Assembly: GCA_963695345.1 (NCBI GenBank)
Contig: OY968769.1
Coordinates: 1,120,001 to 1,184,000, forward strand
DNA length: 64,000 nucleotides
Source of the DNA: an uncultured Methanomassiliicoccales archaeon
GTDB taxonomy: Archaea; Thermoplasmatota; Thermoplasmata; Methanomassiliicoccales; UBA472
Direction of reading: 5' to 3'
The position numbers were made by a program, and so were the translations under genes. The notes under the pieces are model-generated. The model was not told where the DNA came from. It saw nothing but the letters and a program-made list of their open reading frames with translations, and did no database searches. Positions within the stretch are counted from its first letter, which is position 1. Every line of letters starts with the position of its first letter. Shown here piece after piece: positions 46,120 to 63,508 of the stretch.

Positions 46120-48060
46120 ATGGCTTCTAGCAAGAATTTGGACGCCGCCCCACACGAGGTCCGCCTGGACCCGGGGCCATCCACCGTCGAGGTCAGCTCC
46201 ACTTCCAAGGCCAGTGAGGGAGGGGACCTCCGGTCTTGGCTTGAAGGCGGCGATGATTTCCTATCCTGGCTCAATGAAGGAGTGGAGGATCAGAAGACCG
46301 CCGACAATAAACAGACGGCCGTCATCGAAGCCAGTTCCGAATACGTTACCGAGCTCACCGACAGGCTGAAGAAATACGAGGACGAACTCCGGCTGTTGAA
46401 GCAGAAACTGGCAGAGGCTTTCTTGGACAACACCTCGGACCAGTCCGGCAAGGATGTCGAGATCGACCTTGGCCGAAAGCTGCAGGAACTGATCGAGGCG
46501 AAGGATCAGCTGGGGCTCGAGGTGGACAGGCTTCAGAAGCTGAACAATGAGATAAAGCAACACTTCCAGCAATCGCTAGTGAACGTATCAGAGGATAAAT
46601 CGTCCCTGCTCCTGAAGGAGATCGAACTGAAAGAGAAGGAGTCCAAGCTTCTGACCCGCATGAGGGAGCTTGAACTCAGACAACGGGACGCATCAAGTTA
46701 CACATCCAAGGAGGTGGAGGCAAACCTGGAGGAGCGCTTCCACACCGAACTCAGACAGAAGGAGACCGAGTGGAGGTACAAGGAACAACAACTCCAGAAC
46801 CGCATCCAAGACATGGAGAAGGAACTCCTCCGGCTCTCGATGGACCTCAAACTGAAGGACGACAAGCTGAAGATTTTCAACATGGGCAAGCCAGATATCG
46901 AGAAGGCGGTGTCCCAGAAGTACGAGGAGATGATGGCCAAGGAGAAGGAAGCGGCCATGATGAGGAGCGAACTGGACCAGATGAAGATCCAGATCCGTGA
47001 GAAGGACGACGAGCTGAAGAAGATCAAGGACATCGTCACTTACAAGGAGGATGAGCTCAACCGCCGCGAGGAGGACATGATGTACCGGGAAAAGGTCCTC
47101 TCGGGCGAGAAGCGCAAGTTCGAAGAGACCCGCAAGGAGCTCTCTGGCACCGACGAGGTGGAACTGAAGAAGCGCATCGAAGAGCTCCGCAACGAGGTGC
47201 AGAAGAAAGAGGAGGACCTGCGCGCCAAGGAACGGTTCCTCAACGCCAAGGCCGAGGAGATCCGGATGCGTGAGTCCGGTCTGATCGAGGACGAGATCAA
47301 GGCCAGGGAAAAGGACCGGGTCCTGGAGGCGACCCAGGCAAAAGTGAAGACGGGCAACACCCGTCTGGACGATCTGCTGCTGGGCGGCATACCGTTCGGT
47401 TCCAACATCATGGTCCACGGACCGCCGTTCGTCGGCAAGGAGGTCATGGTCAACTCATTCGTCGCGGAAGGCCTCAAGAAGGGCATTCCGGCGCTTTGGG
47501 TGATCACCGACAAGACCCCCAAGGATATACGGGAAGAGATGAAGTTCGTACTATCTGGTTATGATGAGTACGAAAGGAGAGGGTTGGTCCGGTACATCGA
47601 CGCCTTCTCGCGTTCCATGGGCGACGAGTCCAAGGACGAGTATACCGTATACATCGATGAGCCGACCGACCATGAGAAGATCTCCGAGGCGGTCGAGACC
47701 ATAACCAAGACCTTCCGTGAGAATTACGAGTACTATCGCATGGCGTTCCGGTCCATCTCCACCCTTATCGCCTACTCGGACCCGAACACCGCCTTCCGGT
47801 TCCTTTCGCCATTGTGCGGTAAGCGAAAAAGGGACAAGGCCGTCTCGATGTTCACAGTCGAGAAGGGCATGCACGGCGAGCAGGAGATCCAGATGCTCGG
47901 CTCTATCATGGACGGGATGATCGATTTCAAGGTCGATCAGCTGAAGACGTTCTTCTCGATCCAGGGGATCAGCGAGGTGCAGTCCCGGGCCTACATCAGG
48001 TACACTTCATCGAAGCATGCCCTGCAGATCGGCTCGTTCGCCCTAGACCACATCAGGTAA
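46120..48060 (+). CDS. Long coiled-coil protein with C-terminal KaiC/RAD55-like ATPase domain (probably inactive)
   Basis: About 330 aa of E/K-rich heptads, then KTGNTRLDDLLLGGIP, GPPFVGKE, Walker B position reading MAFRS. Confidence 0.88.
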   Translation: MASSKNLDAAPHEVRLDPGPSTVEVSSTSKASEGGDLRSWLEGGDDFLSWLNEGVEDQKTADNKQTAVIEASSEYVTELTDRLKKYEDELRLLKQKLAEAFLDNTSDQSGKDVEIDLGRKLQELIEAKDQLGLEVDRLQKLNNEIKQHFQQSLVNVSEDKSSLLLKEIELKEKESKLLTRMRELELRQRDASSYTSKEVEANLEERFHTELRQKETEWRYKEQQLQNRIQDMEKELLRLSMDLKLKDDKLKIFNMGKPDIEKAVSQKYEEMMAKEKEAAMMRSELDQMKIQIREKDDELKKIKDIVTYKEDELNRREEDMMYREKVLSGEKRKFEETRKELSGTDEVELKKRIEELRNEVQKKEEDLRAKERFLNAKAEEIRMRESGLIEDEIKAREKDRVLEATQAKVKTGNTRLDDLLLGGIPFGSNIMVHGPPFVGKEVMVNSFVAEGLKKGIPALWVITDKTPKDIREEMKFVLSGYDEYERRGLVRYIDAFSRSMGDESKDEYTVYIDEPTDHEKISEAVETITKTFRENYEYYRMAFRSISTLIAYSDPNTAFRFLSPLCGKRKRDKAVSMFTVEKGMHGEQEIQMLGSIMDGMIDFKVDQLKTFFSIQGISEVQSRAYIRYTSSKHALQIGSFALDHIR

Positions 48061-48102
48061 TGGGATCGTTCGATCGAGCGGGCCGATGACTCAGAAATAC
48101 GG

Positions 48103-48528
48103 TTACGCGACCTCGACACCGCTGCCCGGCTTGATCCCGCCCTTCTTCTGCACGTTGATATGCGGCAGAGGGAATGGTGGGGGAAGCTTGATGTCCCGGG
48201 CGACCAGCAGGGCGGTGGGCAGGCAATTCGCCACTACGGTGTTGTGCACGGCGTTGGCCTCGTCCAAAGGCATCGAACCGTCCTTGGCCCATTCCGCCAT
48301 GATCTCGTTGGCGTTGCCCTCACCGATGATCTGGCCCTCGATCTTGATAAAGCCCATCCCGGAATAGTTGGCGGTGAACCGAAAATCAACTGAGATCGTC
48401 TCATCCGACATCCTAACCACTTGGGTGATGCTGCTGTTCTGGTCGATACGGATGTTGGTCATGCGCTCTCCTGCTTTGGAGAAACGTTTCGCCTCGATGA
48501 CGCTCATCTCGAAGGACTTGACCTGCAT
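48103..48528 (-). CDS. Conserved archaeal hypothetical protein, possibly SecB-like fold
   Basis: Four beta-strands then helices, ending ARDIKLPPPFPLPHI. Confidence 0.7.
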   Translation of the reverse strand: MQVKSFEMSVIEAKRFSKAGERMTNIRIDQNSSITQVVRMSDETISVDFRFTANYSGMGFIKIEGQIIGEGNANEIMAEWAKDGSMPLDEANAVHNTVVANCLPTALLVARDIKLPPPFPLPHINVQKKGGIKPGSGVEVA

Positions 48529-48600
48529 GTTCACCATGAACCCTATCGGTGCGGGCGATATCAAACTTTGTAATGCGTCTCAGATGAAAAGGATAAGGAG

Positions 48601-48673
48601 TGCCGCAGGCCGGGCTCGAACCAGCGACTTCAAGGTCTTCAGCCTTGCACTCTCCCAGCTGAGTTACTGCGGC
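48601..48673 (-). tRNA. tRNA-Phe(GAA)
   Basis: GCCGCAG acceptor stem, anticodon arm CAAGG-CTGAAGA-CCTTG, T arm GCTGG-TTCGAGC-CCGGC, discriminator A; no intron and no encoded CCA. Confidence 0.97.
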
Positions 48674-48700
48674 TTGGCGGTCAGAGAAAGTGGAGGACCA

Positions 48701-48707
48701 TTATAAA
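48701..48707 (-). promoter_or_regulatory. TATA box of tRNA-Phe
   Basis: TTTATAA on the minus strand about 28 nt upstream of the tRNA 5' end. Confidence 0.65.
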
Positions 48708-48805
48708 GGTTGGCATGTCCCGCCCGCGTACAAAAAATGAAAGGACCGCACCCTAGAAGGCGGCAAAAAGCGTTGCGGGAGGGGTTCCCTGGCAGATGCA
48801 TCGTG

Positions 48806-48858
48806 TTGCGAAAAGCCTTAATTTCGCAAATAGCCAGACAGCTCAGAATGTTTAAATA
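48806..48858 (+). promoter_or_regulatory. Pilus operon promoter: inverted repeat plus TATA box
   Basis: TTGCGAAA-N8-TTTCGCAA (48806-48829) and TTTAAATA (48851-48858) ahead of ATG 48902. Confidence 0.55.
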
Positions 48859-48901
48859 CTCACGATTAACTTCTTTCACGATACGATTTTGAGGAACCAG
48901 C

Positions 48902-49906
48902 ATGGTCAAAGTTGCCCTTAAAAAAAGGATTCTGAGCAGATCGAGTCGGGCTCGATGCATACGCCGTGACGAAGAGGGAGTAGCCTCCGTGATCGGCACG
49001 ATCATGGCCTTGCTGATATTCCTAACTTTCATGTCCATGTTCGTGAACACCTACATCCCCATTTGGATGAAGGAGAACGAACGGCTTCACATGAACGAGG
49101 TCCAGAACCAGATGGGTGAGGTCAAAGGTAAGATCGACAACCTCATCGTCAACGCCCAGGTGACCGGGACCAGCATGGTTAACACCTATGAGCCGATCAC
49201 CCTTGGTGCGGACGGGATCCCGCTGTTCGCTTCGGCCACCGCGGGAGGGCTCTTCCTGAGGCCTTCCGGCACAGGCACCACCAGTACCACCGTCCAGTTC
49301 AATTACACCTCCAACGGAAAGGTTACCTTCAGCGAGACCGGGGGCGGGAAGTTGGAATTCTATGCCCCCAACAGATACTATGTCGGTCAGTGGCTGGCCT
49401 ATGAGAACGGCGCCTTGATCGTCAAGCAGGACGTGGGCGAGGCGATGAAAGCATCTCCCTCGCTGGAAGTGACCAAGTCCGGGTCCACCTTCAACGTCGA
49501 GTTCACCCAGATCGACATCGTCGGGACCAACTCCACGATGTCCGGCAACGGAGTGGCCGGCGTGAACATCAACCTGATCTACCTGGACTCCCAGAAGTAT
49601 ACTCCCCATTGGAACAACCAGAACACCACGGTATACAAGTTCAACACGGTCTACCACGTGGCGCTCATGGACTTCATGAACAAGACGATAAAGGCAGCCG
49701 ACCCATTGGCCACGATAACCGCCACCAGGACCGGTACCGGCGTCGGTAGCGTCTACTCGGTGGTCGCCGCCAATGCCGGCGTCACCGAGATGACCGTCAC
49801 GGACACGATGCTGGCAGACAAGTCCCACATGGTCACGCTTCAGATAATCAACACGGGAACGCTGACGCTCAGCCGCGCCTTCGTCCAGGTCGACATCAAC
49901 GTTTAA
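48902..49906 (+). CDS. Large archaeal type IV pilin-like protein (class III signal peptide)
   Basis: Basic leader, then DEEG/VASVIGTIMALLIFLTF, followed by a T/N/G-rich beta domain. Confidence 0.85.
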   Translation: MVKVALKKRILSRSSRARCIRRDEEGVASVIGTIMALLIFLTFMSMFVNTYIPIWMKENERLHMNEVQNQMGEVKGKIDNLIVNAQVTGTSMVNTYEPITLGADGIPLFASATAGGLFLRPSGTGTTSTTVQFNYTSNGKVTFSETGGGKLEFYAPNRYYVGQWLAYENGALIVKQDVGEAMKASPSLEVTKSGSTFNVEFTQIDIVGTNSTMSGNGVAGVNINLIYLDSQKYTPHWNNQNTTVYKFNTVYHVALMDFMNKTIKAADPLATITATRTGTGVGSVYSVVAANAGVTEMTVTDTMLADKSHMVTLQIINTGTLTLSRAFVQVDINV

Positions 49907-49918
49907 CGAGGTTTCAGA

Positions 49919-51647
49919 ATGACTACAGAAGCAGATCCGATGGCCCGCGGCAACAGGAGGCAGGAGCCGCTGTCAAAGGAGACCACCATGGAGAAGGCCA
50001 AGGAGGGCTACATGCGCTTCCTGAAGAAGGTAGCCCCGAACCGTGGGATCAAGGTCATGCTCCCTACCAAACTGGTGGAGCAGAAGCGCCTCCAGAAGGG
50101 TTCCCACGTCACTGACATCCCGGAGATCAAGAACCCCAACATCGAGATCCTGGAAGTTTATCCGGTCAAGGAACCTTACAGCTACATCCGGATCTCCTTC
50201 AACAACGATAACAGCGAGTACCTCTACGAGGTCATCGAGCCAGAACTTAGCCGGGAGGAGAAGGACCTTCTGGCCCTGATAAAGGACACCCTGCAGCGCA
50301 CCCTTGGCTACGAGTGGGAGAAGCTCACCGGCCTGGACAAGGAGGAGTACCTGCGGGAGAGCGTGGACTCGTTCGTCCGCACCCGGGGGATCAAGGTCGA
50401 ACCGATCACCAAGAAGAAGCTCGGTTATTACATCATCCGCGACTTCGTCGGTCACGGTGTCATCGACGTGATGATGTGCGATGACGATATCGAGGATATC
50501 TCCTGCGACGGACACAACATCCCCATCTTCATATCGCACCGGAAGTATGAATCGGTGCGGTCCAACATCATTTTCGACAACGAGGATTCGCTGAACAACT
50601 TCGTCGTGACGCTATCTCAGAGGAGCGGGAAGCAGATCTCCGTGTCCAGCCCCATCCTCGACGGGACCACCATCGAAGGACACCGCGTCCAGGCGACCTA
50701 CTCCCGGGAGGTGACGACCAGAGGTTCGACCTTCACCATCAGGCGGTTCAAGCACCGCCCGTTCACGCCGGTCGACCTGCTCAAGTACAAGACCGTCTCC
50801 CCGGAGATGATGGCGTACTTGTGGCTCGGGGTGGAGAACGGGGAATCGATGATCCTTTGCGGCGGCACGGCATCGGGAAAGACGTCGGCGCTGAACTCGC
50901 TCGCCCTTTTCATCCCTCCGGGCGCCAAGATCGTGACCATGGAGGATACCCGGGAGATAAACCTGCCCCACGAGAACTGGATCCCGGGCATGACCCGCAC
51001 CGGCGTGGGCGAGAAGGACAAGGACGGCAAGTCGGCGGGTGAGATCGACATGTTCGACCTGGTCCGCGCCGCGCTGAGGCAGCGTCCGAACTACATCATG
51101 GTCGGTGAGGTCAGGGGCAAGGAGACCTACATCATGTTCCAGGCCATGGCCACCGGTCACTCGACCTATTCCACCATGCACGCCGATTCGGTCAAGTCGC
51201 ATGGTCAACCGGCTGGAGAACCCGCCCATCAACTGCCCCAGGATACTGCTGACCGCCCTGCGCAACGTCCTCATCCAGGCCCAGGTCAGGGTGGGCAACG
51301 ACCTGGTCCGCCGCATGAAGCAGGTCATCGAGATCGTCGGTTTCGAGCCGGAGACCAATGAGCTCATCACCAACACCGTCTATGAATGGGACCAGGCGAC
51401 GGACCGGTTCATCTACAAGGGCCACTCGTTCCTTTTCGACAAGATAATGGAAATGAAGTCGCTGACCCACGACGAGATGATGACCGAGTTCCAGAGGCGG
51501 ATAGAGATCATCAATTACATGGTGTTCAAGGACATGACCGACTACCGCAAGATCTGGGCCATCACCAATGCATATTACAAGGATCCCGAGAAGACCCTAG
51601 CCAGGGTTAGGAAGGAGACCGAGGAGGGTACCAAGAATGTCGCCTGA
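49919..51647 (+). CDS. Type IV pilus / type II secretion assembly ATPase 1 (ArlI/TadA-like); frameshift ~51200
   Basis: IEDISCDG, FTIRRF, Walker A GGTASGKT, EDTRE, LRQRPNYIMVGEVRG, MATGH..STMHA. Confidence 0.92.
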
Positions 51648-52682
51648 AGTCTCAGATATGTTCTCCAAGGTGGATTCGAGCAAAAGCACCTACATGAAGA
51701 CCAAGAAGATCGGCGAGCACAAGAAGGAGCTGGGACCGAGGGTGGTCAGGCTGCCCGAGGGCGTCGTGCCGGACTACGTCAAGCTTACCAAGTACCAGGA
51801 GTTCTGCTGGAGGACGATCGGGCAAGACTGGTCACGCTCCGGGCAAAGCCCAACCCGAAGCAGGAGTCGCTGCTCCTTCAGGCGCACATGCGGATGCGGC
51901 AGGAGGAGTTCGTCGCATACGTGTGGATGACCACCCTGTTGGTCGCGATCCTGACCGCGCTGATAAGCGTGTTCTTCGGAGCGATCTTCATCGCCGTGCT
52001 GAACATCAGCCCGGCCTTGGCCATATTCTTCTCGGTGATGGTGGTGGTGATCCCCACCATCATGACCTACGTGGTCGTGAACAGCGATCCCGGGCTCCAA
52101 GGCCAAGATCCCGCAAGCGCGACATCGACAAGCGCATAGGCCCGGCAATGTCGTTCATCTCGGCCATGGCCTCGGCCGATGTCAACATCGATGTCATCTT
52201 CAAGGAGCTTTCCCGCCAGCCGATCTACGGGGAGATCCAGAAAGAATCGGAATGGATCACCAGGGACACGGAGCTGCTGGGCATCGATATCCTTACCGCC
52301 ATAGGCAAGGCCGCGCAGCGCACGCCGTCGCAGCGCTTCCAGGAATTCCTGCAGGGAGTGGTCACCACCTCCACCTCCGGCGGACAGCTGAAGCCGTACT
52401 TCCTGCAGAAGGCGGAGCAGTTCGAGAAGGAGCACAAGCTGGAGATCAGGGCACAGCTGGAAAGCCTGGGACTGATGGCCGAATCGTTCGTCACGGTCGT
52501 GGTCGCGTTCCCGCTGTTCCTCATCGTCATCATGGCCATCATGGCCATCGTGCCGGGCGGCGGCGGCAGCGCGGGCACCACCATAATGCTGCTCTACGCT
52601 GGTCGTGGGCCTGATGGTGCCGTTCTCCCAGTTCGGGTTCATCTTCTTCATCTGGAATTCAACCAAGGAGTCAACGATGTGA
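51637..52682 (+). CDS. TadC/GspF-like pilus platform membrane protein 1; frameshifted
   Basis: TM pair, YGEIQKE...LLGIDILTAI..AAQRTPS..FQEFLQG, LGLMAESFVT. Confidence 0.85.
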
Positions 52683-52691
52683 GGTGCTTAA

Positions 52692-53611
52692 ATGGCCAAT
52701 GAAAAGAACCTGGATATAATGGACCTTAAGCAGCTCAAGAGCGAGAAGAAGGATCTATACCAAGACCATGCTGATCGTCGGCATCGTCCTCGGGGTCCTT
52801 TTCCTGCTCATCGGCTTCCTTGACGCCATCGGCGGCCTCGAGACGCCATTGAACTGGATCGACTACGTGGCGCTTGGCCTGATGGGCGTTTCCGGACCAT
52901 ATGGTTTCTACACGACCTACAAGCACAAGAAGATCAGGAACATCGAGGCCCGTCTCCCGGACTTCCTCAGGGACGTGGCCGAAGCGGGCCGTTTCGGAAT
53001 GACCTTGGCCGAAGCCATCAAGGTCTCTTCGAGGGGCAGGTACGGACCGCTCACCCCGGAGATCCAGCGGATGGCCGCCCAGATCGAATGGGGCGTCCCA
53101 GCGGCGGAGGCGTTGAAGCTGTTCGCGGAACGGGTCGACACGCCCGCTGGTCAACCGGATGATATCGATCATCATCAAGGCCAACGATGCCGGCGGCAGC
53201 GTCGCCGACGTGCTTACCATGGTGGCCCACGATGCCCGCGAGAGCATGCTCGACCAGAGCGAGCGCAGCCTGGAGATGTCCACCTACACCGTGGTCATCT
53301 ACGTGGCGTTCGCCGTGTTCCTGGCCACCATATTCATCCTGAACGCCACCTTCCTGCCGAAGATGGCGGAGGCGGGGGCACAGGTTTCCGCGGGGGCGGC
53401 GGCGGCCGGCATCACCAACATGCCCGCCACCATCAAGACCGAGGTCATCCCGCAGATCCAGTTGATATTCGTCATATCGGTCGTCATCCACGCCTTCGGG
53501 GACGGCATTCTGGCGGGTGTGCTGCAGGACGGCCGGATCGCCAACGGGCTGAGGCATTCGTTCATCATGCTGCTGCTGGGTCTCCTCGGCACGAAACTGG
53601 GAGGCACCTGA
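52692..53611 (+). CDS. TadC/GspF-like pilus platform membrane protein 2; frameshifted
   Basis: IEARLPDFLRDVAE..RFGMTL, YGPLTPEI, KANDAGG, C-terminal TM segments GLRH. Confidence 0.85.
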
Positions 53612-53612
53612 G

Positions 53613-55340
53613 ATGGAAGCTTCAAGAAAGCCGATGGACGAGATCGACGAGGTCCTGAAGAAGAACCGGGAGCCCCGGGTCAAGCATGCCCCCAAGCAGG
53701 GATTGAGCAGCCGAGTACCTGGGTTTCCTGCTGAAGGTCAAGGGCCGGCCTATGAAGATCACTGCTTCCCTCCGAGACGAGAGCCCCGGCGGTCGAATCC
53801 GGAGTGATCACCGAGGTGCCGAAGATCGGGGAGCTGAACGTCGACGAGGTCGAGGTGACCCCGGTCTACAAACCGTACTCATTCGTCCGTATCAAGTTCG
53901 ACAACACCTCTTCGGAGTACATCTACGAGGTCATCGAGCCGCACCTCACCGAAGACGAGATGTACCTGCTGGACATGCTGAAGTCTTCCCTCATCGTAAC
54001 CCTGAACCTAACGATAAGGAAGACGCCCAAGGAGAAGTTGGAGATCCTGCGCAAGGCGACCGACGAGCTCCTCCGGGTATTTGACGTCAGTCCGAACGCG
54101 CTTTCCAAGGAGCGCATCCTGTACTATCTGCGCCGCGACTTCATCGGTTATGGCGCCATCGACGTGATGATGCATGGACCCGAACGTCGAGGACTGCTCC
54201 TGTGACGGGGTCAACATCCCGCTCTACATATTCCACCGCAAGTACGGGTCCATCAAGTCCAACGTCAAGTTCGAGAAGGAGGAGGAACTGGACTCGTTCG
54301 TGGTCTGGCTGGCACAGAAGTGCGGGAAGCACATCTCGGTGGCCAACCCGATGCTGGATGCCACCATCCCGGACGGTTCCAGGCTGAACGCGACCCTCGG
54401 CATGCACGTCACCAAGAGAGGTTCGTCGTTCACCATCAGGCGGTTCAAGGAGAACCCGTTCACGCCCATCGACCTGCTCAAGTTCAAGACCATGAGCACG
54501 GAGATGATGGCCTACCTGTGGATATCCACCGAGTTCGGCTCGTCGATGCTGGTGTGCGGAGGTACCGCCTCCGGAAAGACCACCACGCTCAACGCCGTCC
54601 TGCTCTTCATCCCGCCGCAGAAGAAGATCATCAGCATCGAGGACACCAGGGAGCTGAACCTGCCGCACGAGAACTGGATCCCCGGCCTGACCAGGGAGGG
54701 TTTCGGCGGCAAGAAGGCGAACAGCACCGGTTCCGTCGACATGTTCGACCTTCTGACCGCGGCGCTCAGGCAGCGCCCCGATTACCTGATGGTCGGTGAG
54801 GTGAGGGGCAAGGAAGCGTATGTGGTCTTCCAGGCCATGGCCACCGGCAAGACATCCTACTCCACTTTCCACGCCGAGGACGTCCAGGCGATGGTGCACA
54901 GGATGGAGAACGACCCGATCAACCTGCCCCGGGCGCTCATGACCGCTTTGGACATCGTCATGCTGCAGGCCCAGGTCAAGGTCGGCACCAAGATGACCAG
55001 GAGGGTCAAGTCATTGACCGAGATAGTCGGCATGGACGCCGAGACCGGAGAGCTCATCACCAACGCCGTCTTCAGCTGGAACCCGGCCGATGACACGTTC
55101 AACTACTCCGGCCACTCGTACATCTTCGAGAAGGTCAGGACGATCAAGTCCTGGTCCCCCAGGGAGATGGAGCGCGAGGTGAAGCGCCGGGTCGAGATAC
55201 TGGAGTTCATGAAGAAGACCGGTGTCGACAACTACAAGCAGGTGGCCCGGATCATCTCGGCATACTACAAGAGCCCGGAACGCGCCATAAAAGAGATCCG
55301 GGACAAGATGACGGCCACACAACTGGCCCCTCCCCAGTGA
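53613..55340 (+). CDS. Type IV pilus / type II secretion assembly ATPase 2; frameshifted
   Basis: VEDCSCDG, FTIRRF, GGTASGKTT, EDTRE, LRQRPDYLMVGEVRG, MATGK..STFHA. Confidence 0.9.
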
Positions 55341-55362
55341 CCGGACGGTCCTGGGGTCGAGC

Positions 55363-55388
55363 TCTATTTTTTTACTCTCTTTTACTTC
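55363..55388 (+). terminator. Oligo-T terminator of the pilus operon
   Basis: TCTATTTTTTTACTCTCTTTTACTTC about 25 nt after the stop codon. Confidence 0.55.
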
Positions 55389-55786
55389 GTATGGGTGAAT
55401 GGATTCCATTTGGGTTAGTTCGGGAAGGCCCCTCCTCCCAAAAGAATATGCTTTGAATCAAGGTATTTGTTGTTATTGAGCAGTACTGGATGCCTCAAAT
55501 AAGGACTAGCTTATGATAAATCGAATCAGAAATATTCGAAGGCATTCCTGCATCTTCGATCATGAAAGACAAGATTTCACCCCACTAACTGAAGAGAGCC
55601 TCTTTTTTTCAACCCGATGATGCGGCCTGAGATCAGCTCGGCTTTGGTATGTGAAACGGACCGCGGCTGCGCAAAAGACCGGCGGGTATGGTCTTTCGGT
55701 CATCGAAGGAACGAAACCGCTGCCTCTGAAGGGTGAAGATCGGAGAAATGGGGAAAGGGGTTTGTCTAAATGGTTTGGAAGCGGGA

Positions 55787-58700
55787 TCACTCTTTCTTCT
55801 GACCCTCTTGCGCGTTGTCCTGGAAGCGCTCCGCCGGGTCCTGTTCCTTCACGACCTTCTTGGGGACCATCTTGCGTTCCGAAGAGCGCTTGACGATCTT
55901 GCGGAACGGCTTGGCCTGCTCCCCGGTCTCGGCGGCCTGCGCCGTTTCCGGGACCCGGTCGAACACCGTGCCGCACTTGGAACAGATGGGCGCTCCTTTC
56001 GGGTTGAGGGTACCGCAAGCCGGGCAGGGCACGGAACTAACCTTCCGGTCCTCCTCCTGCTTGGCCACCCAGACCTCGAAGGTCATGTACGCCGGCTCGG
56101 TCCTGAGCCAGTCCATGAACTTGTCCTCGGAGTACTTCTTGCCCAGTGCGGCCTTGGCCTGCTCCCGGAACCCGTTGACGTACTCGTCGTACTGCATTCT
56201 CATGGACGACATGTAGGCATCTTCGGAGATGTCCTCCATCGGCTCGGTCATGAACTTCGCCCCGCACTCCGGGCACTCCTTTGACCTGGACGGAATCCAG
56301 GTGCCGCACTCGGAGCATTTTGCCGTGTCCGTCTCGAACTCGGTGCCGCACCGCGGGCAGCGTTTCGAGCTCTCCGGGATCAACGAGCCGCATTCGCCGC
56401 ACTCCACCATCTTTCCCAGTCCGTACTTGTACAGGTATACCGAGAAGATCAGGATGATGGCCACGACGATGATCGCGATGAGGATGAATATCCACAGCGG
56501 TACCGACTGCGGCTTGAATATCTCCACGATGTTGATCGGGATGGCGTTCGAATAGGTCGCGCCGGAGTTCAGCGTCACGCTCACCGAGTGACTGCCGGAA
56601 CGGTCCGTGGGCACGAATATGTAGCTGGTGTACGCCCCGCTGGTGTCGGTCCTGGTGGACATCGCCGTACCCACTGGCAGACCGGCGGAGTCAAGCAGCC
56701 TGATCGTGATCGACTGGTTGGCCAGGGCGTAGCTTCCATCGACGTTGGTGATCGACTCCGGTCACCAGTATCGATTCGCCCGGCTGGAAGTCGGTCTTGG
56801 TCCCTACGCTGATGAGGATGCGCGGGTTCGGAATGTTCACGGTGAACGTCCGGCTGTCGATGTTGTTGGTGTAGTTTGACTCCTCGATCACGTGACGGGA
56901 GTTCATCTCCACGAACAGGGTGTAGACGCCGGAGGTGACGTTCACCACCCAGGGGAACGTTATCTGGACCGACGCACCGCCGGCCAGGTCCCTGGTCATG
57001 CTCATCAGGTAGTGGTTGAAGTTGTCGCTGTCCCTTACGTAAATGTCTAGGACGGCCCCGTTCGCCGGCTTCAGACCCTCGTTGGCCATGGTGAACGAGA
57101 TGTCAATGGACTGACCCTGGACCGCCTGGGAGGTCGAGTTGCCTCCGCTGGACGGTTTGACCGTTACCCCGGAGGGGTACCAAAGGTCCGCCCGGTTGTC
57201 TATCACCAGGAGCGAACTGGAAATGATGTTGTTCTCATAGGTCGTCTCGATGATCGGGGTGTCGTTGCCGTGGGTGAAGGGGTTGACCTCCACGGTGATC
57301 ATGCGGCTCTGGTTGCGGCCCGATCCCTGTATGGCGCTGGCGATCCAGGCCATCTGAATATCGGTCGTCGCGCCTGAGTTAATGCTCGGGACCACCACAT
57401 CACCGATCTTGGTGCCGGTGCTGGTCGTTCCCAGCCAGAAGCGCACGATGAAGTTGGACGCCACGAACTCGCCGGTGTTCATCACGGTCGCGCTCAGTGT
57501 CACGGAATCACCGATGAACACCTGGGTCACGACCGATCCGGAACTGGTCAGTTTGAACTGGAGGTTCGTGGCCACCAGGTCCGGGTAGTTCAGGACCTTG
57601 ACGACGACACCTGCCTTGTTGTTGCCCTTGGACGCTTCCAGGAGGGTGTTGTTCTCATCTATCACGACGGTTATGTTGTGATCGCCGGGCAGCATGTGCT
57701 GCCAGGTCGCAAAGGCGAACCCTGTCTGACCGCTCCTTATCGCGGGCAGCGTGAAGTTGCCGATGGATATCCATAGGCCATGGAACACATCGTAGAAGCG
57801 TATCACCGCGGTGTGCTCCATGTTGTCCCCGCTGTTCACTATGTCAGCCCGTATGGACACGGTGGAGTTGGTCTCTATGATGGCCGGGTTGAACGAGATC
57901 TGACCGGGGAGGATGCTCAGGTCCGGGACACCCTGCACCGACACTATTGTCTGATTCCAGTTGTTGGTGCGGTTCAGCTGCGGAATGGCAGCGAACGGGT
58001 CGACGGTAACGTTCAGGGTATGGTTGCCTACTGGATAGGCGGCGGTCCAAAGGACGGTCAGGTTGGTGTGCTCTCCCGGCGCGATGGCTGTGAGTATGCG
58101 GTCGGCCACTATTGCGTCCGTGGTCACGTCCTTGAAGCGGACCAGCACATTGTAGGCAGTGACCACTCCGGTGTTGGTGATGTTGGCCGTGAGGCCCACC
58201 ACTACGCCCCTGGCGGGGCTGTAATCAGACGCCCAGAAGGGCGGGTCAAGTTCGGGCAGCGCCCCAAGGATGTTCACATTGGTGGCGATGTCGCTCTTGG
58301 CGATCCCTGTTCCATTGTTGATCAACCCGTCAGGAACGACCTGGGTATACCGGCCGTTGATGGCTCCGGTGCTGTCATACCGGACGCCGTGGAACCAGTA
58401 GGTCGCGTTGACACGGTAGTTATCGTTGAAATGTGACCCGCCGTAAGGGGTGATCCAGTCGGACAGGAGCGAGAAAGTGGCCTTTCCGTCCGCACCGGTC
58501 ACGCCCGTTGCGTAGAGAACTCCGGTCGACCGGTCGACCTCTACGAAGGCATCGGATATTCCATGGACCAGTGTCCCGTCCATGACGGTCACTGTCAACA
58601 GGCGGTAGCTCCAAGCCCTTGCCTCATCCTGGAGATGCAATGCTGGAAGAGATACGCTGGTCAGTACCGCTGTCGCCTGACCTCCGAAGTTGGTGATACC

Positions 58701-61414
58701 AACGAGGAAGGTGACATTGGTGGCGGTCAGGTTTCCGTACGAGGAGGACGGGGCGGAGATGTTCGACGCCACGAAGTTGCTGTCGGACAGCGTTGCCTTT
58801 GAGTGGCCATCGATATTGATGCTGACGACCCCTGGCAGAACGGATCCGTTGCTGGCCGATAGAACCGCGTTTTCCGTAAGGAAGATCGTTGTCGGGTTGT
58901 TAGATGTTATCCTGCCGGATACTATCTCTATAGAACCGGACCCAGAAACGGTTATCTTGAATTGGTTCGGATAATCGTTTATTAGGTTCAGTATGCCCGA
59001 TGAAATGACTAGTCTGGCATTGTCCCTGACCTCTATGTCGCCCTTGATCTGGTAGGGAGTGCTCCCACTGATCGACATCACCTGTGTGCCTGAAAGGACG
59101 ACCGGACCATAGACGACGGACAAAGTCGGGAACGTCACGGTCCTGGCGTCGACGTTGTTGGCCATGTCGGGGAAGTGCCTGAAGTTGGTCGAAATTCCCC
59201 CGTTGCCGTCGTCCAGCTCGTAAAGGACATGGTTAAGGGTACGGTACTTGAAGACCAGGTTGTAGTCGAATGCCTTACCGTTCCTCATGTTAGAGCTGTT
59301 CAGCACATCGCTGAGCAGGGGCAACTTGACGGTTCCGTTGGCGGCCGTCCTGTTGAAGTTTGATGCGGTCTTGCCGAGGTAGTTGAGGATCGCCTGGGGC
59401 GGGGTCGAAACCGTACCGGTTTGATCTAGATAATGGGAAGCGAGACCGCTTCCGATGTTGCTGGACGTGACACCGACGTTTCCGACAGGTATTTGTTGGT
59501 TGTCGGTTACTTCAAGCGAGACCCAGCGGTAGAGTGCGACGGTCGGTTGTGTTCTGAATATTCAGATAAAGTCGATCAAAATGGATTGTCGCCCCACCGG
59601 CATGTGTAAAAGACGAATGTAAGTGTCTTCAATTTTTCAATGGAATTGACATCGTTTGCATATAAATCGAAGGTCCGATGGTTGTTTGACCGGGATCTAA
59701 GTGACGGTCTTAGAATGTTGGTGTTTCTTAATGTAGACACCATCAAAACTGAATACTGAATATAGTTCGTTTGAGAGTATCCAGATTTCTGTAAAGTATA
59801 CAAATGATACGGTTAGACTCTTGATTGATCCAGTCAACTCTCCAAGATTGAACTGACGACGTTCATTGTTTGTCCGATCGTCACATCATAATAGAAGAGA
59901 GTCGCCCTGTAGCATATAGTCCAATTACATTCTGTCCAGTTGTGTCATTCGTTCCGATTTGCTGACAATTACCTTGGCCAAGATTCTTAGTCTTGAAGAC
60001 ATTGGTGCCGAAGTATCCGCCAGTGCTGTTCTGGACGGTCAGACCGTACAGGTTGGCGATCGACTGGTCCAATGCGACCAGTTTGTGATAGGCGCCTTTT
60101 GTCGCATCGGTCCCGTTGTTCTCGTTGATGTTGTTCAGCGGGATGAATGAGTCAGCGACCACCAGGTTCGTCGATCCGCCGATGGTGATGTTGCGGTAGG
60201 TCGACAGCTTCATGTCGATCGTGACCCAGATCCGGTCGATGTACACGTTGCCGGCCTTGGAGTTGGTGTAGTTCAAGGTGAGCTTGCTCAGGCTCTGAGC
60301 GGACATGCTCGGCAACGTATAATCCTTGGTTATGTTGACATTGGTCCCGGAAGGATTGCTGGCCTGATAGGTCGGAGTGGTTTCCATGTTGGTGTCGACG
60401 GCAGCTCCGAACTGCGGTGTGTAGTATAGCGAATCGTGCGTGCCGGCGATCGGCGCGCTGGTGCTGGTCTTGTAGCTGACGTGCAGGATGATGCTCGTTA
60501 TGTCAGCCGCCTCGAACACCAATCCGCCCATGTCGAAACCGGTCGTGTAAATCTTCTGTGTGGTCGCCACGGTCACGTTCAAGGTGTCGTTCATCGTCAT
60601 GGACAGCGCCTGCTGGCCGGCAGCCACCGTGCTGAGCGGTCCGAACACGGCGTTGACATCCCTCTCCAGGTAATAGTCCACGATCTGTCGGGCCTTCGTG
60701 TCCTTGGCGAACTGGTAATTGTTATTGTAGGGACCCGGCGTCGCGATAGCGGAGTTGTACGTGCCGTTATCGTACATGTTCAGGACCCGGGAGCCGATCA
60801 TCGTCACATCGCTGGACATGAACAGCATGACCGGAGAGCTGCTGAACGCCTTGGTCGGGAAATAGGTAGAATTGTATACGGTCGTCAAACCGGAAACGGT
60901 GGAATCGATGAGCGAGAACCTTGAATCATCGACCAGAAGGTGTCCCGAGAACGATATGTTGGACGTCCTTGATTCCAGGTATCCGCCGTGCCTGACCACA
61001 ACCCCAAGTGCTGGAATGAGGTTGCCGCCCAGTACATCGACGGTCAATGTCGAATTGTCAAGGATCAGTATCCCGCCGTCCTCGATGGTCAGCGATAGCG
61101 CCTTGACGCCCGCCCCGACCGGGGTGCTTCCTGAATAGGTAGAACGGAATACTATGGTAGAATTGACGATCTCGACCATTCCGCCACGCCCTGATCGTCA
61201 GGTTCCCGTCGAACGGGAACGAGCCCTGGTTATGCACGGTCAGGTTCTTGGAATATCCTGTTCCTATGATCATGTCCCCATTCGGGATCTCTCCCTGGGC
61301 GGACACCCCCACCTCGGGGACGGCAATGAGCATTACCCCAAGGAAAGACGAGATCACCATGCACCAAACGATTGCGAAGCTAACAAGCTTGTTGAATCCA
61401 GCACCCTGCCTCAT
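55787..61414 (-). CDS. Giant single-pass surface protein (~1,870 aa): signal peptide, beta-helix-like region, about 4 CARDB domains, TM helix, cytoplasmic zinc ribbons; multiple frameshifts
   Basis: Joined ORFs 61058-61414, 59881-61179, 56691-59324 and 55787-56674; CARDB motifs (PDL...NxG...VD..N.I.E....NN), TM VPLWIFILIAIIVVAIILIF, six CxxC pairs. Confidence 0.8.
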
Positions 61415-61439
61415 TATAACACCTGATTGACGACCATTG

Positions 61440-61471
61440 GTATTTTGGAAAATACTGTTTGAGTCTATAAA
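61440..61471 (-). promoter_or_regulatory. TATA box plus palindromic operator-like site of the giant surface gene
   Basis: TTTATAG (61465-61471, minus strand) and GTATTTT-GG-AAAATAC (61440-61455). Confidence 0.5.
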
Positions 61472-61602
61472 TAGATGGTTACTTCTATCACACTTTGAAA
61501 CTTGCGTGGCCTACTTTTTGCCTACTGGCCATATATGAAAAAACTAATTATCATTATGCGCAAAAAGGGAGCATAAAAATAAGGATAGGGAGGGGGCCGC
61601 CC

Positions 61603-62781
61603 TCACTTCCTCTTGATTATCTTCCGTATCGAAACGGAGCGCTTCACTTCCGATTTCCTATCGTCTTCCTGCTCCTTGTGCTTCTCTTCCTCGACCGGCT
61701 CTTCCTCGACGTGCTTCTCTTCCTCGACCGGCTCCTCTTTCGGTTTCGGCTTTGGTTCTTCCTTCTTCGGTTCCGCCCGGCGGGAATCGGTCTTCTTGGG
61801 GGCTTCGACCAGCTTGCCGTCCTTGAGCTTGGCGTCGCAGGCCCAGCAGCGTTCTGACTTGGAATCGATCATGGTCCCGCAGTTGGGGCACTCGAACTCT
61901 TCCCTCTTCTCCTCGGCCGGTTCTTCCTCGGCGATCTCCTCTTCCTCGGCCGATTCCTCTTCCTCGGCCTCGGGTTCTTCGATCGGGGCCGGGATGGATC
62001 TCATATTGGGGGAATCCTCTTCGACACTGGCCTCCATCTTGGCGGCGTTGTCCTCTTCCATTATCTCCTCGGGCTTGGCCTCATCGAAGGCTGGCTCGGG
62101 GACATGTGATCTGGCCGCGGTCTTGGCCCGGCGGCCTTCCATCGCTTCCCTTTGGGTAAGGGCCTTCTCCCTCTCTCCCAGGGTGCGCTCCCATTCCACG
62201 AAACGCTTCTGCTCCTCCAGCATCAGCTTCTTGCTGTTGGCGAGAAGGTCGGCCTGCTCTTCCACGACCTTGATCTTGGCGAGGAGCTCCTCCCTCTTCG
62301 CGCTCAGGGATTCGACCATCTTCTTCAGGTCCGACTCGCCGGCGAGCATGCGCTCCTCCATCTTGGCGGCGCGCTCACCGGAATCGCGGAGCCGCTTCTC
62401 GTAACCGGACGTGAGCTCGGTCAGGCGGAGCAGTTCCGACTCCTGTCTGGCGATCTCGCTCCTGACGCCGATCCAGGGTCTCCCGGCTGGCCTGGATGTC
62501 GTCCTCTCTGCTCTGGAGGTCGGCCTGCAGCCGGTTCAGATCGTCCTGGAACTTGGTTACCCGGTGCTCCCGGGGGGCAAGCTCTGACTCGCGCTTCTTG
62601 ATCTCGGACTCCTTCCTCCCGAGATCGCCCTCGCGGTCGGCCAGCTCACGCTCGTCGGCGCGCAGTCTGGTCTCCGAGCGTCGAGGTCCTCGCGACGCTT
62701 CTTGAGGTCGGCCTCTTGGGTCTTGATCTTGTCCTTGAACTCTTCTATGACCTGCCAGATCGGTACTGAATCGTCTGCCAT
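61603..62781 (-). CDS. Coiled-coil / acidic linker / zinc-ribbon protein; frameshifted in the 5' part
   Basis: MADDSVPIWQVIEEFK..., coiled coil, E-rich linker, CPNC..CWAC, C-terminal IRKIIKRK. Confidence 0.8.
61678..61737. repeat. 33-bp tandem repeat (about 1.8 copies) inside the CDS
   Basis: GTGCTTCTCTTCCTCGACCGGCTC repeated at a 33-nt period; encodes EEPVEEEKH twice. Confidence 0.85.
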
Positions 62782-62806
62782 TGATATTCCCCGCATTTGA
62801 ACATTT

Positions 62807-63508
62807 CTAGGCCAGTGTCGGCCCTAGTATAGTAAGCCCGTGATCGCCCACTTCCATGGTGTGGCGTTCCATCGAGTGCTCCGTGGCCCTCATCTTCTCG
62901 ACCCGCATGTACCGCACCAGCTTGCCGCGGGTACGGTCGAGCCCGAGCTCGATTATGCCATCCACCAGGAACCCTTCGTTCCCGAGCAGGTCGGAAGGCG
63001 CCCCGGGATTCCGTTCCATGACGATGAACGACATGAGATTGTAGTCCCTCAGCGTCTTGAAGAAGTAGAACATCTTCTTGCGCATCCCCTTCACGTCGTC
63101 CATCAATGAATACAACGCCCCCAGGGAGTCTAGGCTGAACACGGTGAACCGGTCTCCGTGCTTCTTCTTGTAATACCCGATGGTCTGGATGATGAATTGG
63201 AGATAGTCGGTGGGCGAATCGACCTCTACGATCTCGTCCAGCTCCCGGAGGTCCGTGAAGTCGGATATCTCCAGGTTCGATGTCAGCTTTAGGTTCAAAG
63301 ACCTCATGTTCCTGATGTGGCTGTCCGCGGTTTCCTCCAGCGTGACATACAGCCCGAACTCGTTGGTCTTGTCCAGATATGATGACATCATCGAGTAGCA
63401 GAAGGAGGTCTTCATGGATCCTGGGGGGCCGGTGATGAGAACCACCTTGGGGACCTCGATGTCCGTCCTGAATACCTTGTCCAAACCTTGAATGGAATTC
63501 CTGAACAC
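62807..63508 (-). CDS. KaiC/RAD55 family ATPase (single domain)
   Basis: IQGLDKV, Walker A GPPGSMKT, YVTLEE, Walker B FSLDS, FLVDGIIEL, EKMRATEH. Confidence 0.92.
   Translation of the reverse strand: MFRNSIQGLDKVFRTDIEVPKVVLITGPPGSMKTSFCYSMMSSYLDKTNEFGLYVTLEETADSHIRNMRSLNLKLTSNLEISDFTDLRELDEIVEVDSPTDYLQFIIQTIGYYKKKHGDRFTVFSLDSLGALYSLMDDVKGMRKKMFYFFKTLRDYNLMSFIVMERNPGAPSDLLGNEGFLVDGIIELGLDRTRGKLVRYMRVEKMRATEHSMERHTMEVGDHGLTILGPTLA

Follow-up and report, generated by a model that had tools for sequence, protein, structure and literature searches.

The stretch of DNA considered here, referred to as the window, comprises 64,000 nucleotides of the genome of an uncultured Methanomassiliicoccales archaeon (G000:C1:1120001-1184000), which is a single-contig genome of 2.56 Mb with a completeness score of 85%. 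McrA is encoded in the genome and the organism is therefore a methanogen of the Thermoplasmata lineage, as was assumed in the original prediction made from the window. Positions 46120-63508 contain a type IV pilus operon, the gene of a giant surface protein that ends in zinc ribbons, two genes for proteins with KaiC-like domains and a gene for a coiled-coil zinc-ribbon protein. All of the genes named in the original prediction exist at the positions given there, and the convergence of three minus-strand genes (small KaiC, zinc-ribbon protein and giant protein) on the plus-strand pilus operon is confirmed by the open reading frames and a frame map. Gene order and strands were taken from intact copies in the congeners G003 (L021) and G007 (L022) and in G014 (L026), and the G003 copies were mapped back onto the window. 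Six genes are broken in the window by single-base insertions or deletions (indels), i.e. both pilus ATPases, both platform halves, the giant gene and the zinc-ribbon gene.

The pilus operon opens with a gene for a prepilin-like protein of 334 amino acids (48902-49906, +, an open reading frame). This is followed on the same strand by pilus ATPase 1 (49919-51644; Pfam T2SSE, E 1.1e-28), by the N-terminal half of a platform protein of the ArlJ/TadC type (51637-52679; Pfam T2SSF), by the C-terminal half (52692-53608; Pfam T2SSF, E 8.2e-20 on the G003 copy) and by pilus ATPase 2 (53613-55340; Pfam T2SSE and PilB3_C). In the congeners each ATPase has 574 amino acids, and the platform halves have 346 and 305. 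Pfam T2SSE matches the intact G003 ATPases at E 1.9e-31 and 6.8e-35. The best match of both is the NCBIfam FlaI model, at 413.8 bits for ATPase 1 and 444.5 bits for ATPase 2, which is below the model's cut-off of 550. The first platform half covers NCBIfam ArlJ positions 5-244 of 555, and the second covers ArlJ positions 184-448 of 465 and 267-541 of 555. One operon thus contains two ATPases of the T2SSE/FlaI kind and a platform split into the N- and C-terminal halves of ArlJ.

A machine with two ATPases and a platform split in two genes, termed CdiP, has been described in Cuniculiplasma divulgatum (Thermoplasmatales), and what its second ATPase does is there called enigmatic (PMC12448462, ISME J 2025). 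The operon found here resembles CdiP in its two ATPases of the AapE/FlaI kind, in the split of the platform into N- and C-terminal halves and in belonging to the same archaeal class (PMC12448462). It should be pointed out that orthology with CdiP is presumed from architecture and lineage. There are also differences. The CdiP major pilin is encoded about 500 kb from its operon (PMC12448462), whereas here a prepilin-like gene opens the operon; and the available text of PMC12448462 names no giant zinc-ribbon-tailed neighbour, KaiC partner or coiled-coil protein.

The N-terminus of the prepilin-like protein reads ...RRDEEG/VASVIGTIMALLIFL, that is, a charged stretch, a glycine and a hydrophobic helix. 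Judged by eye, this appears to fit the pattern of a class III signal peptide. The protein has no Pfam match, even at E 10, and its gene is the single prepilin-like gene in the operon. Other pilus-type genes are found elsewhere in G000. A second pilus/archaellum-type locus (C1:683505-691810) has a T2SSE ATPase beside five genes of the archaellin family (PF01917), and a third T2SSE ATPase is encoded at 161.5 kb. Three more PF01917 genes are at 543 kb, 894 kb and 2066 kb, the last of which sits between two KaiC paralogs (2060 and 2068 kb).

The giant protein is encoded on the minus strand, with a signal peptide, ectodomain and transmembrane stretch at 56435-61414 (CARDB, E 7.4e-39) and a cytoplasmic tail at 55787-56434 (Pfam DZR and Zn_ribbon families). 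A hydrophobic leader is followed by a long N-x-S/T-rich region without family match, then by four CARDB stretches and one hydrophobic span; the topology was judged by eye. The leader, also by eye, lacks the charged-residue/glycine pattern of prepilin cleavage. The protein has 1873 amino acids in G003 and 1578 in G007, and orthologous open reading frames range from 1578 to 2858 amino acids. Between 59500 and 59990 (-) the G+C content of the gene falls to 0.48, there are many small indels relative to both congeners, and G007 lacks about 300 amino acids; this stretch is a hypervariable part of the ectodomain. A search of the ESM Atlas with the first 700 amino acids of the giant protein gave phage clusters without known family at a best score of 0.80, which is chance level, and these matches were dropped.

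The predicted cytoplasmic tail with six CxxC pairs is present at the C-terminus, behind the one hydrophobic stretch, and is about 215 amino acids long (about 210 had been given). It consists of a double zinc ribbon and three helices, after which come a third ribbon, a disordered linker and a basic motif, PFRKIVKR, which across the tails takes the form F/L-R-K/R-I-V/I-K/R-R or a lysine-rich variant. The six CxxC pairs are found in 23 of 24 listed tail orthologs, and L039, whose end looks frameshifted, has five. All 12 tail cysteines are invariant (alignment A3), and the helical core is invariant or nearly so. A structural model of the tail has a predicted local distance difference test score (pLDDT) of 74.6 overall and of more than 90 in the three helices. 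A fold search with this model against solved structures found nothing at E 0.001, and only generic zinc-finger and zinc-ribbon entries were returned. Between families, tails are 46-53% identical compared with 30-38% for the ectodomain. Conservation so far above that of the ectodomain argues for a partner inside the cell. The tail domain is found in 226 representative metagenome proteins at E 1e-30; among 150 tail proteins listed, nearly all have the domain at or near the C-terminus, and most of these proteins have at least 1000 amino acids.

A related double zinc ribbon is present in a 358-amino acid protein (L077:9896-10972, -; in G000 near C1:1193890), where it is N-terminal to a long helical remainder and is 50% identical to that of the giant tail over 58 amino acids. 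In most relatives the gene lies 16-19 kb beyond the giant gene on the KaiC side, and a gene for a DUF835 protein adjoins it (L077:8837-9880, +). In G003 no DnaA-like fusion is seen over a distance of 18 kb.

The small KaiC ATPase, of 233 amino acids, is encoded by an intact gene at 62807-63508 (-; Pfam KaiC, E 3.2e-35). It scores 122 bits against a cut-off of 26.6 for Pfam PF06745, and the best match of its profile to solved structures is the KaiC structure 8zn5 (E 5.5e-31). The canonical Walker A consensus is GxxxxGK[ST], and the small KaiC has GPPGSMKT. The glycine before the P-loop lysine is replaced by M or L in 22/22 orthologs, and by F in one paralog. The P-loop lysine, the following S/T, the EE pair (E58 and E59) and the Walker B aspartate D127 are invariant in the same 22 orthologs (alignment A2). 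Circadian KaiC has two tandem domains in about 500 amino acids, with KaiA and KaiB as partners. The protein found here is not circadian KaiC proper, as its single domain aligns to one half of KaiC chains, and family scans detect no KaiB-like gene in the cluster.

The second KaiC-like domain is at the end of a long coiled-coil protein of 646 amino acids, encoded by an intact open reading frame at 46120-48060 (+) and 92% identical to its G003 ortholog over 646 amino acids. The domain is at residues 411-611 (Pfam KaiC, 71.4 bits, E 9.2e-20). Aligned with the small KaiC, it has GPPFVGKE at the Walker A position, DK in place of the EE pair and an arginine in place of the Walker B aspartate. GPPF[VIQT]GKE, with its glutamate after the P-loop lysine, as well as DK and the arginine are found in all 11 displayed orthologs of 20. 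By sequence the domain is thus a member of the KaiC family, and it is predicted to be an inactive pseudo-ATPase. The earlier description of an active/inactive KaiC pair therefore appears to be borne out, in that the small KaiC keeps its catalytic residues, whereas both the EE pair and the Walker B aspartate are gone from the long protein. Neither protein reaches the ArlH model (21.9 and 23.2 bits compared with a cut-off of 215), and the FlaH structure 4yds is a weak match of the long protein's domain (E 4.6e-4). An ArlH-like reading of this domain, suggested by short relatives beside FlaI-like ATPases, was dropped because of these weak matches.

The coiled-coil zinc-ribbon protein is encoded at 61603-62796 (-), as determined from its translation and from an alignment of 12 orthologs; it has 393-397 amino acids in the congeners, with 396 in G003 and 393 in G007. 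It starts with an N-terminal motif, VPIWQVIEEFK, which is followed by about 200 amino acids of heptad-like charged sequence, an acidic linker, one CxxC...CxxC ribbon and an almost invariant C-terminus, KRSVSIRKIIKRK (alignment A1). SIRKIIKRK or a close variant ends the protein in 12/12 aligned orthologs. A basic C-terminal motif is thus common to the zinc-ribbon protein and the giant tail. The motif might be a membrane-binding amphipathic segment, in which case the two proteins would meet at one membrane patch without having to bind each other. Complex prediction for the small KaiC, the tail and the zinc-ribbon protein gave a score of 0.00 in both runs and a mark of 0.32, without controls, and it speaks neither for nor against binding.

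Two minus-strand genes separate the coiled-coil KaiC gene from the pilus operon. One encodes a protein of about 145 amino acids (48106-48564) that is 92% identical to the G003 copy (L021:2542-2979) and has no Pfam or NCBIfam family match. Its structural model (pLDDT 80.5) has as best fold matches the SecB-like chaperone Rv1957 and SecB of Escherichia coli and Haemophilus influenzae, at E 2.5e-4 to 5e-3, probability 1.00 and template modelling (TM) scores of 0.5-0.6. Based on this model, the 145-amino acid protein may serve in this archaeon as an export chaperone of the SecB-like kind, with the giant protein as a possible client. The other gene is tRNA-Phe (GAA) at 48600-48673 (ARAGORN; Rfam tRNA, 63.1 bits), which is probably a passenger in the cluster. 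On the far side of the coiled-coil KaiC gene, about 280 bp upstream and divergent, lies the gene of a seven-transmembrane (7TM)-PAS histidine kinase with a HATPase_c domain (43780-45834, -). Among the 20 loci described below, this kinase is seen only at the edge of L021, and most of the stretches end before its position. Pfam and NCBIfam family scans reveal no histidine kinase or receiver domain among the conserved cluster genes; however, as a histidine kinase adjoins the cluster directly upstream, the proposed absence of a His-Asp phosphorelay cannot be claimed.

The broken frames deserve separate comment. Mapped against the intact 1873-amino acid G003 protein, the giant gene (55787-61414) is spread over at least four reading frames. 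Two indels break the zinc-ribbon gene, one of +1 near 62458 and one of -1 near 62676. ATPase 1 has one frame change, a 1-nt insertion near 51199, and ATPase 2 has at least two in the window; three are visible in the first platform half and two in the second. Translation gives nonsense for the ends of ATPase 1, both platform genes and the start of ATPase 2. All of these genes are intact in the congeners. The breaks are mostly single-base insertions in G000 that are found at the same places relative to both congeners, and 17 sites are listed. Contigs of a sediment metagenome (X1), in pieces that are 95-99% alike to the window, lack one base at 51823, 51827, 52086, 52107, 52600, 52757, 61186 and 62460 and carry one extra base behind 62676; these sites are among the indels listed, and 25 further ones lie beyond the listing. 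The X1 indel positions are the frameshift sites of the window genes. The broken stretch of the giant gene at 59521-59855 is outside the listed X1 contig pieces. X1 may be the same sample from which the genome was assembled. If so, two readings of one population disagree and there is no independent support, although the open forms exist regardless.

Because two congeners and the metagenome contigs are without them, the indels, of which the locus has roughly 20, are most likely assembly errors, and the window genes are most likely functional in nature. The 85% completeness of the closed genome fits a consensus sequence with many indels. An alternative genetic code was rejected as a cause, since the breaks are frame changes by single-base indels and not in-frame stops of one kind. 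GATC is present in 8 of the 17 insertion contexts and CATG in 3; with a GATC density of 8.4 per kb, about one context in eight is expected by chance. There are 147 GATC sites in the locus, of which only a minority are affected. As a guess, the insertions might stem from systematic consensus error at methylated motifs, which would explain the 85% completeness.

Within the order the cluster is conserved. A full-length ortholog of the tail is found in 32 of 40 relatives, and is missing from two fragmented genomes of family f1 and from all six genomes of families f6 and f7. Regions of 20 kb around the tail were taken from 20 genomes of families f1, f2, f3 and f5. The operon, the SecB-like gene, the coiled-coil KaiC-like gene and the giant gene have the same order and orientation in 20/20 of these loci. 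The zinc-ribbon gene and the small KaiC are present in 17/20, and the three misses are at contig ends. The conserved linkage that the original prediction called for is thus found across four families of the order. ATPase 2 is the best conserved protein of the cluster, with 81-97% identity in 19/20 loci and 56% in L039. Identity is 65-99% for the small KaiC across the 17 loci that reach its gene and 41-76% for the prepilin-like protein in 20/20. Between families, ATPase 2 is 81-89% and the small KaiC 65-83% identical, compared with 54-65% for GyrA.

The comparison outside the order was based on a sample of 201 genomes of the phylum. The tail is present in 13, all of one class (f1 4/4, f8 3/3, f9 3/3, f11 1/1 and f12 1/1). 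All 13 match the coiled-coil KaiC-like protein, and 12 match the pilus ATPase. Among eight genomes that represent other orders of the class, the giant gene and the operon with two ATPases and a split platform remain convergent neighbours in five, three of which have no small KaiC at E 1e-45. A giant protein of 1498-1840 amino acids with six CxxC pairs adjoins ATPase 2 in L061, L062, L065 and L066, i.e. in 4 of 12 operon stretches from outside the order. In L061, L065 and L066 it is directly convergent with ATPase 2, and in L062 the prepilin-like gene lies between them; in G192 the adjacency is seen from the coordinates. The prepilin-like protein beside the operon in other orders is 27-35% identical to the one here. 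The flanks of the pairing differ in f9, f11 and f12. Thus the link between the two-motor machine and the giant protein is the oldest in the cluster and the best supported.

Gene content, motifs, conservation and neighbourhoods are established, and the locus can be looked at as encoding one physically coupled cell-surface apparatus assembled from modules of different age, in which a signal might run inward, outward (with KaiC gating the motors or the adhesin) or not at all. This reading is put forward tentatively, with a confidence that stops just short of even. At the core would be a type IV filament machine of the CdiP type paired with a giant envelope glycoprotein, whose zinc-ribbon tail would dock on the base of the machine or on an adjoining scaffold. 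In this order three cytoplasmic proteins would have been added, i.e. the pseudo-KaiC coiled-coil protein, the small KaiC and the zinc-ribbon partner. The pseudo-KaiC might be a nucleotide-independent scaffold, comparable to the KaiC-like proteins of other pilus-type operons. The small KaiC and its zinc-ribbon partner might form a nucleotide-dependent switch, and the shared basic C-terminal motif would bring this switch to the membrane site of the tail. The resemblance of the zinc-ribbon partner to the ribbon and basic end of the tail, set against six aligned partners from outside the order that have no CxxC, is the best hint that the juxtaposition is functional.

Other pilus-type operons do contain relatives of the KaiC-like domain. 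Among the matches listed, 16 further genomes have such a homolog no more than 10 kb away from a FlaI-like ATPase. In the operons of L073 and L074 the KaiC-like homolog has about 240 amino acids, with APPFIGKE at the Walker A position. These two loci belong to family f13 and show a pilus-type operon (L073:2739-9795) with a FlaI-like ATPase and a split FlaJ. The L073 operon also encodes a Roadblock-like protein (recognized by eye, without family match), a protein in which a KaiC-like domain is joined to a small GTPase, a 238-amino acid pseudo-KaiC and a CheY-like receiver.

A number of observations weigh against a single apparatus. Every physical contact in the scheme is inferred, and so are the binding of the basic motif to the membrane and any influence on the assembly of filaments. 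Perfect order in 20 loci is also less telling than it appears. The gyrA gene (-), which follows the small KaiC gene after 63508, adjoins it in 16/17 loci, and in the remaining locus, L028, the stretch stops at the small KaiC; past gyrA come gyrB, thiC and further housekeeping genes. Since gyrA is as constant as the genes of the cluster, synteny within the order cannot show function, and gene order here is kept whether or not the genes cooperate. The joint absence of four tested components from f6 and f7 (0/20 genomes each in the phylum sample) counts in favour of the proposed linkage, but it could be the result of one deletion of a contiguous block. In f8 the tail-bearing protein is found amid housekeeping genes in 3/3 genomes. 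The 12 operon stretches from outside the order contain no small KaiC, zinc-ribbon or long coiled-coil protein, and 20 stretches at the small KaiC outside the order (about 19 kb on the downstream side) contain no pilus ATPase or platform gene. In addition, G000 has two more T2SSE ATPases, one of them by archaellins, and the KaiC proteins could therefore serve another machine. In G003, intein splicing domains are found in both gyrA and gyrB (L077:449-7049), with LAGLIDADG and Hint in gyrA, whose open reading frame has 1385 amino acids.

These observations raise the question of whether the cluster is a neighbourhood only, in which a pilus machine, a variable adhesin or envelope protein and a general pair of KaiC regulators are independent of one another and share a region that rarely rearranges. 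The constancy of gyrA and of the housekeeping genes next to it, together with a tRNA gene inside the cluster, is what such a region would show. Neither the small KaiC nor the long coiled-coil KaiC-like protein is linked to the operon outside the order; long relatives of the latter exist in many families, far from the operon or on other contigs. The tail-bearing protein is likewise unlinked in f8. However, the convergent pairing of the giant gene and the operon recurs in f9, f11 and f12 despite the different flanks, the strong constraint on the tail calls for a cytoplasmic partner, and relatives of the KaiC-like domain recur inside other pilus-type operons. Independence of the modules is thus rather unlikely as a full account of the locus.

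The original prediction went further than a shared apparatus. It viewed the giant protein as an adhesin or receptor at the head of an outside-in pathway, which would run via zinc-ribbon and coiled-coil scaffolds to a KaiC switch that controls the pilus, with no phosphorelay. Load or ligand binding on the ectodomain would be passed on by the tail and the zinc-ribbon adaptor, and the small KaiC would switch the motors. The three genes concerned are co-directional and adjacent in each of the 17 loci, out of 20, whose stretch covers all of them, the tail is much more strongly conserved than the ectodomain, and the small KaiC keeps its catalytic residues. The adaptor has a zinc ribbon and a tail-like basic end, whereas six aligned partners from outside the order have no CxxC. 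There is also precedent, in that KaiC-family proteins have been proposed as regulators of archaeal pili (PMC4858521) and the KaiC-like CirA represses motility of Haloferax volcanii (PMC10983859).

Against such a pathway, the tail, the basic motif and the operon pairing persist in G092, G167 and G116, which have no small-KaiC ortholog at E 1e-45. The small KaiC is therefore neither the obligatory end point of a pathway from the tail nor the tail's conserved partner, a role for which the machine itself or the long coiled-coil protein, found in all 13 genomes with the tail, is the likelier candidate. In the stretches examined from outside the order, what follows the small KaiC is other partners as well as large helical or tetratricopeptide repeat (TPR) proteins, and no pilus genes. 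A histidine kinase also adjoins the cluster in this genome. On balance the receptor pathway is doubtful. The same low standing is given to a variant of the shared apparatus in which the tail would be a transmembrane coupler, both mechanical and chemical, of a giant, fast-evolving adhesin to the two-motor base, and in this order the small KaiC with its deviant P-loop, the zinc-ribbon partner and the pseudo-KaiC would read the state of the tail and switch between the motors, so that surface or load would be sensed without a phosphorelay.

The surroundings of the small KaiC in other orders merit description. Orthologs are present in 54 of the 201 genomes. A co-directional gene for a charged, low-complexity protein is next in 7 of 9 inspected loci, and this is often followed by a helical or TPR protein of 845-2720 amino acids. 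A phylum-wide pair of KaiC and a coiled-coil partner of one family was considered and rejected, because six partners are only 11-21% identical to the first sequence and are mostly low-complexity. These six partners, aligned in A6, are without CxxC; a partner of 542 amino acids in L044, which was left out of A6, has an N-terminal zinc ribbon. A tblastn search of the stretches around the small KaiC outside the order gave nothing that matches the zinc-ribbon protein. Three genomes of other families encode zinc-ribbon-ended proteins of surface type that adjoin a small KaiC or are within 5 kb of it (L055:12268-16509 in G047, L053:5228-7510 and L058:12977-16171); they have Big_5 and CarboxypepD_reg domains, have CARDB, or match no family. 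Such a pairing between KaiC and a zinc-ribbon-tailed surface protein may thus recur independently.

That the giant protein is instead cargo, with the machine and the SecB-like chaperone acting as a bindosome-type system that installs or organizes it on the cell surface and the cytoplasmic proteins timing or gating the process, is very improbable. In favour of cargo, the ATPases and platform halves match, among other models, those of the bindosome ATPase BasE and membrane protein BasF (for both ATPases BasE ranks second), the SecB-like gene holds its place between coiled-coil KaiC gene and operon in 20/20 loci, and the operon has only one prepilin-like gene. Against it, BasE scores 202-210 bits with a cut-off of 1000 and BasF 34-54 with one of 1300, the leader of the giant protein lacks by eye the prepilin cleavage pattern that is seen in the prepilin-like protein, the homologous CdiP machine makes a filament (PMC12448462), and a search of four loci from other orders revealed no SecB-like gene beside the operon.

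A single apparatus of filament machine, giant protein and added KaiC proteins can be compared with systems that are already characterized. At the archaellum motor, ArlH (FlaH) sits with ArlI, ArlJ and an ArlX or ArlCDE scaffold. The cluster is similar in that small KaiC-like and coiled-coil proteins are encoded beside a FlaI-type ATPase and a FlaJ-type platform, and by analogy it may work like the ArlH motor arrangement. It differs in having no archaellin and no ArlC, D, E, F or G gene; its ATPases are below the FlaI cut-off and its KaiC proteins below that of ArlH. In the alignment complex of bacterial pili, the cytoplasmic tail of the bitopic PilN binds the motor-side scaffold PilM. There too a single-pass protein ties outside structures to a cytoplasmic motor via a short conserved tail, which is a likeness by analogy only. 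There is no relation in sequence or fold, and the protein found here has a zinc-ribbon tail of 215 amino acids and an outside glycoprotein part of 1400-2600 amino acids.

Parts of the picture are already published, i.e. the type of machine (PMC12448462) and the association of KaiC, coiled-coil and zinc-ribbon proteins with archaeal pilus loci (PMC4858521). The census of archaeal pilus loci by Makarova, Koonin and Albers (2016, PMC4858521) reports single-domain KaiC genes beside pilus ATPase and platform genes and proposes them as regulators. In the same work coiled-coil and zinc-ribbon proteins are recurrent neighbours of pilus loci. It reports no secretion ATPase in the Methanomassiliicoccus genomes then available, which fits f6 and f7 but not the present genome. 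The consulted passages of the census do not contain the set of a giant protein with CARDB and zinc-ribbon tail, a zinc-ribbon coiled-coil partner and a pseudo-KaiC, although its supplementary tables may list the families. In the literature searched, no account was found of a giant protein with a zinc-ribbon tail that constantly accompanies this machine, or of the present KaiC set; the supplements to the census and a 2017 paper on KaiC as a hub may bear on it.

The anchoring and control of archaeal pili are poorly understood, especially in the Thermoplasmata, which to our knowledge have no regular S-layer. The gene set described here is robust, and the mechanism proposed for it is inferred. The cluster supplies candidates for missing parts, namely a tail that is conserved across orders, a putative pseudo-KaiC scaffold and an apparently active KaiC with a dedicated partner. 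Should the contacts not be real, the locus would serve as a warning that perfect synteny within an order, when it is common to gyrase as well, is no evidence of function. If the contacts are real, the cluster would provide a testable model of how the cell surface is coupled to a filament motor, and it would represent the first defined function of archaeal KaiC-like proteins outside the archaellum.

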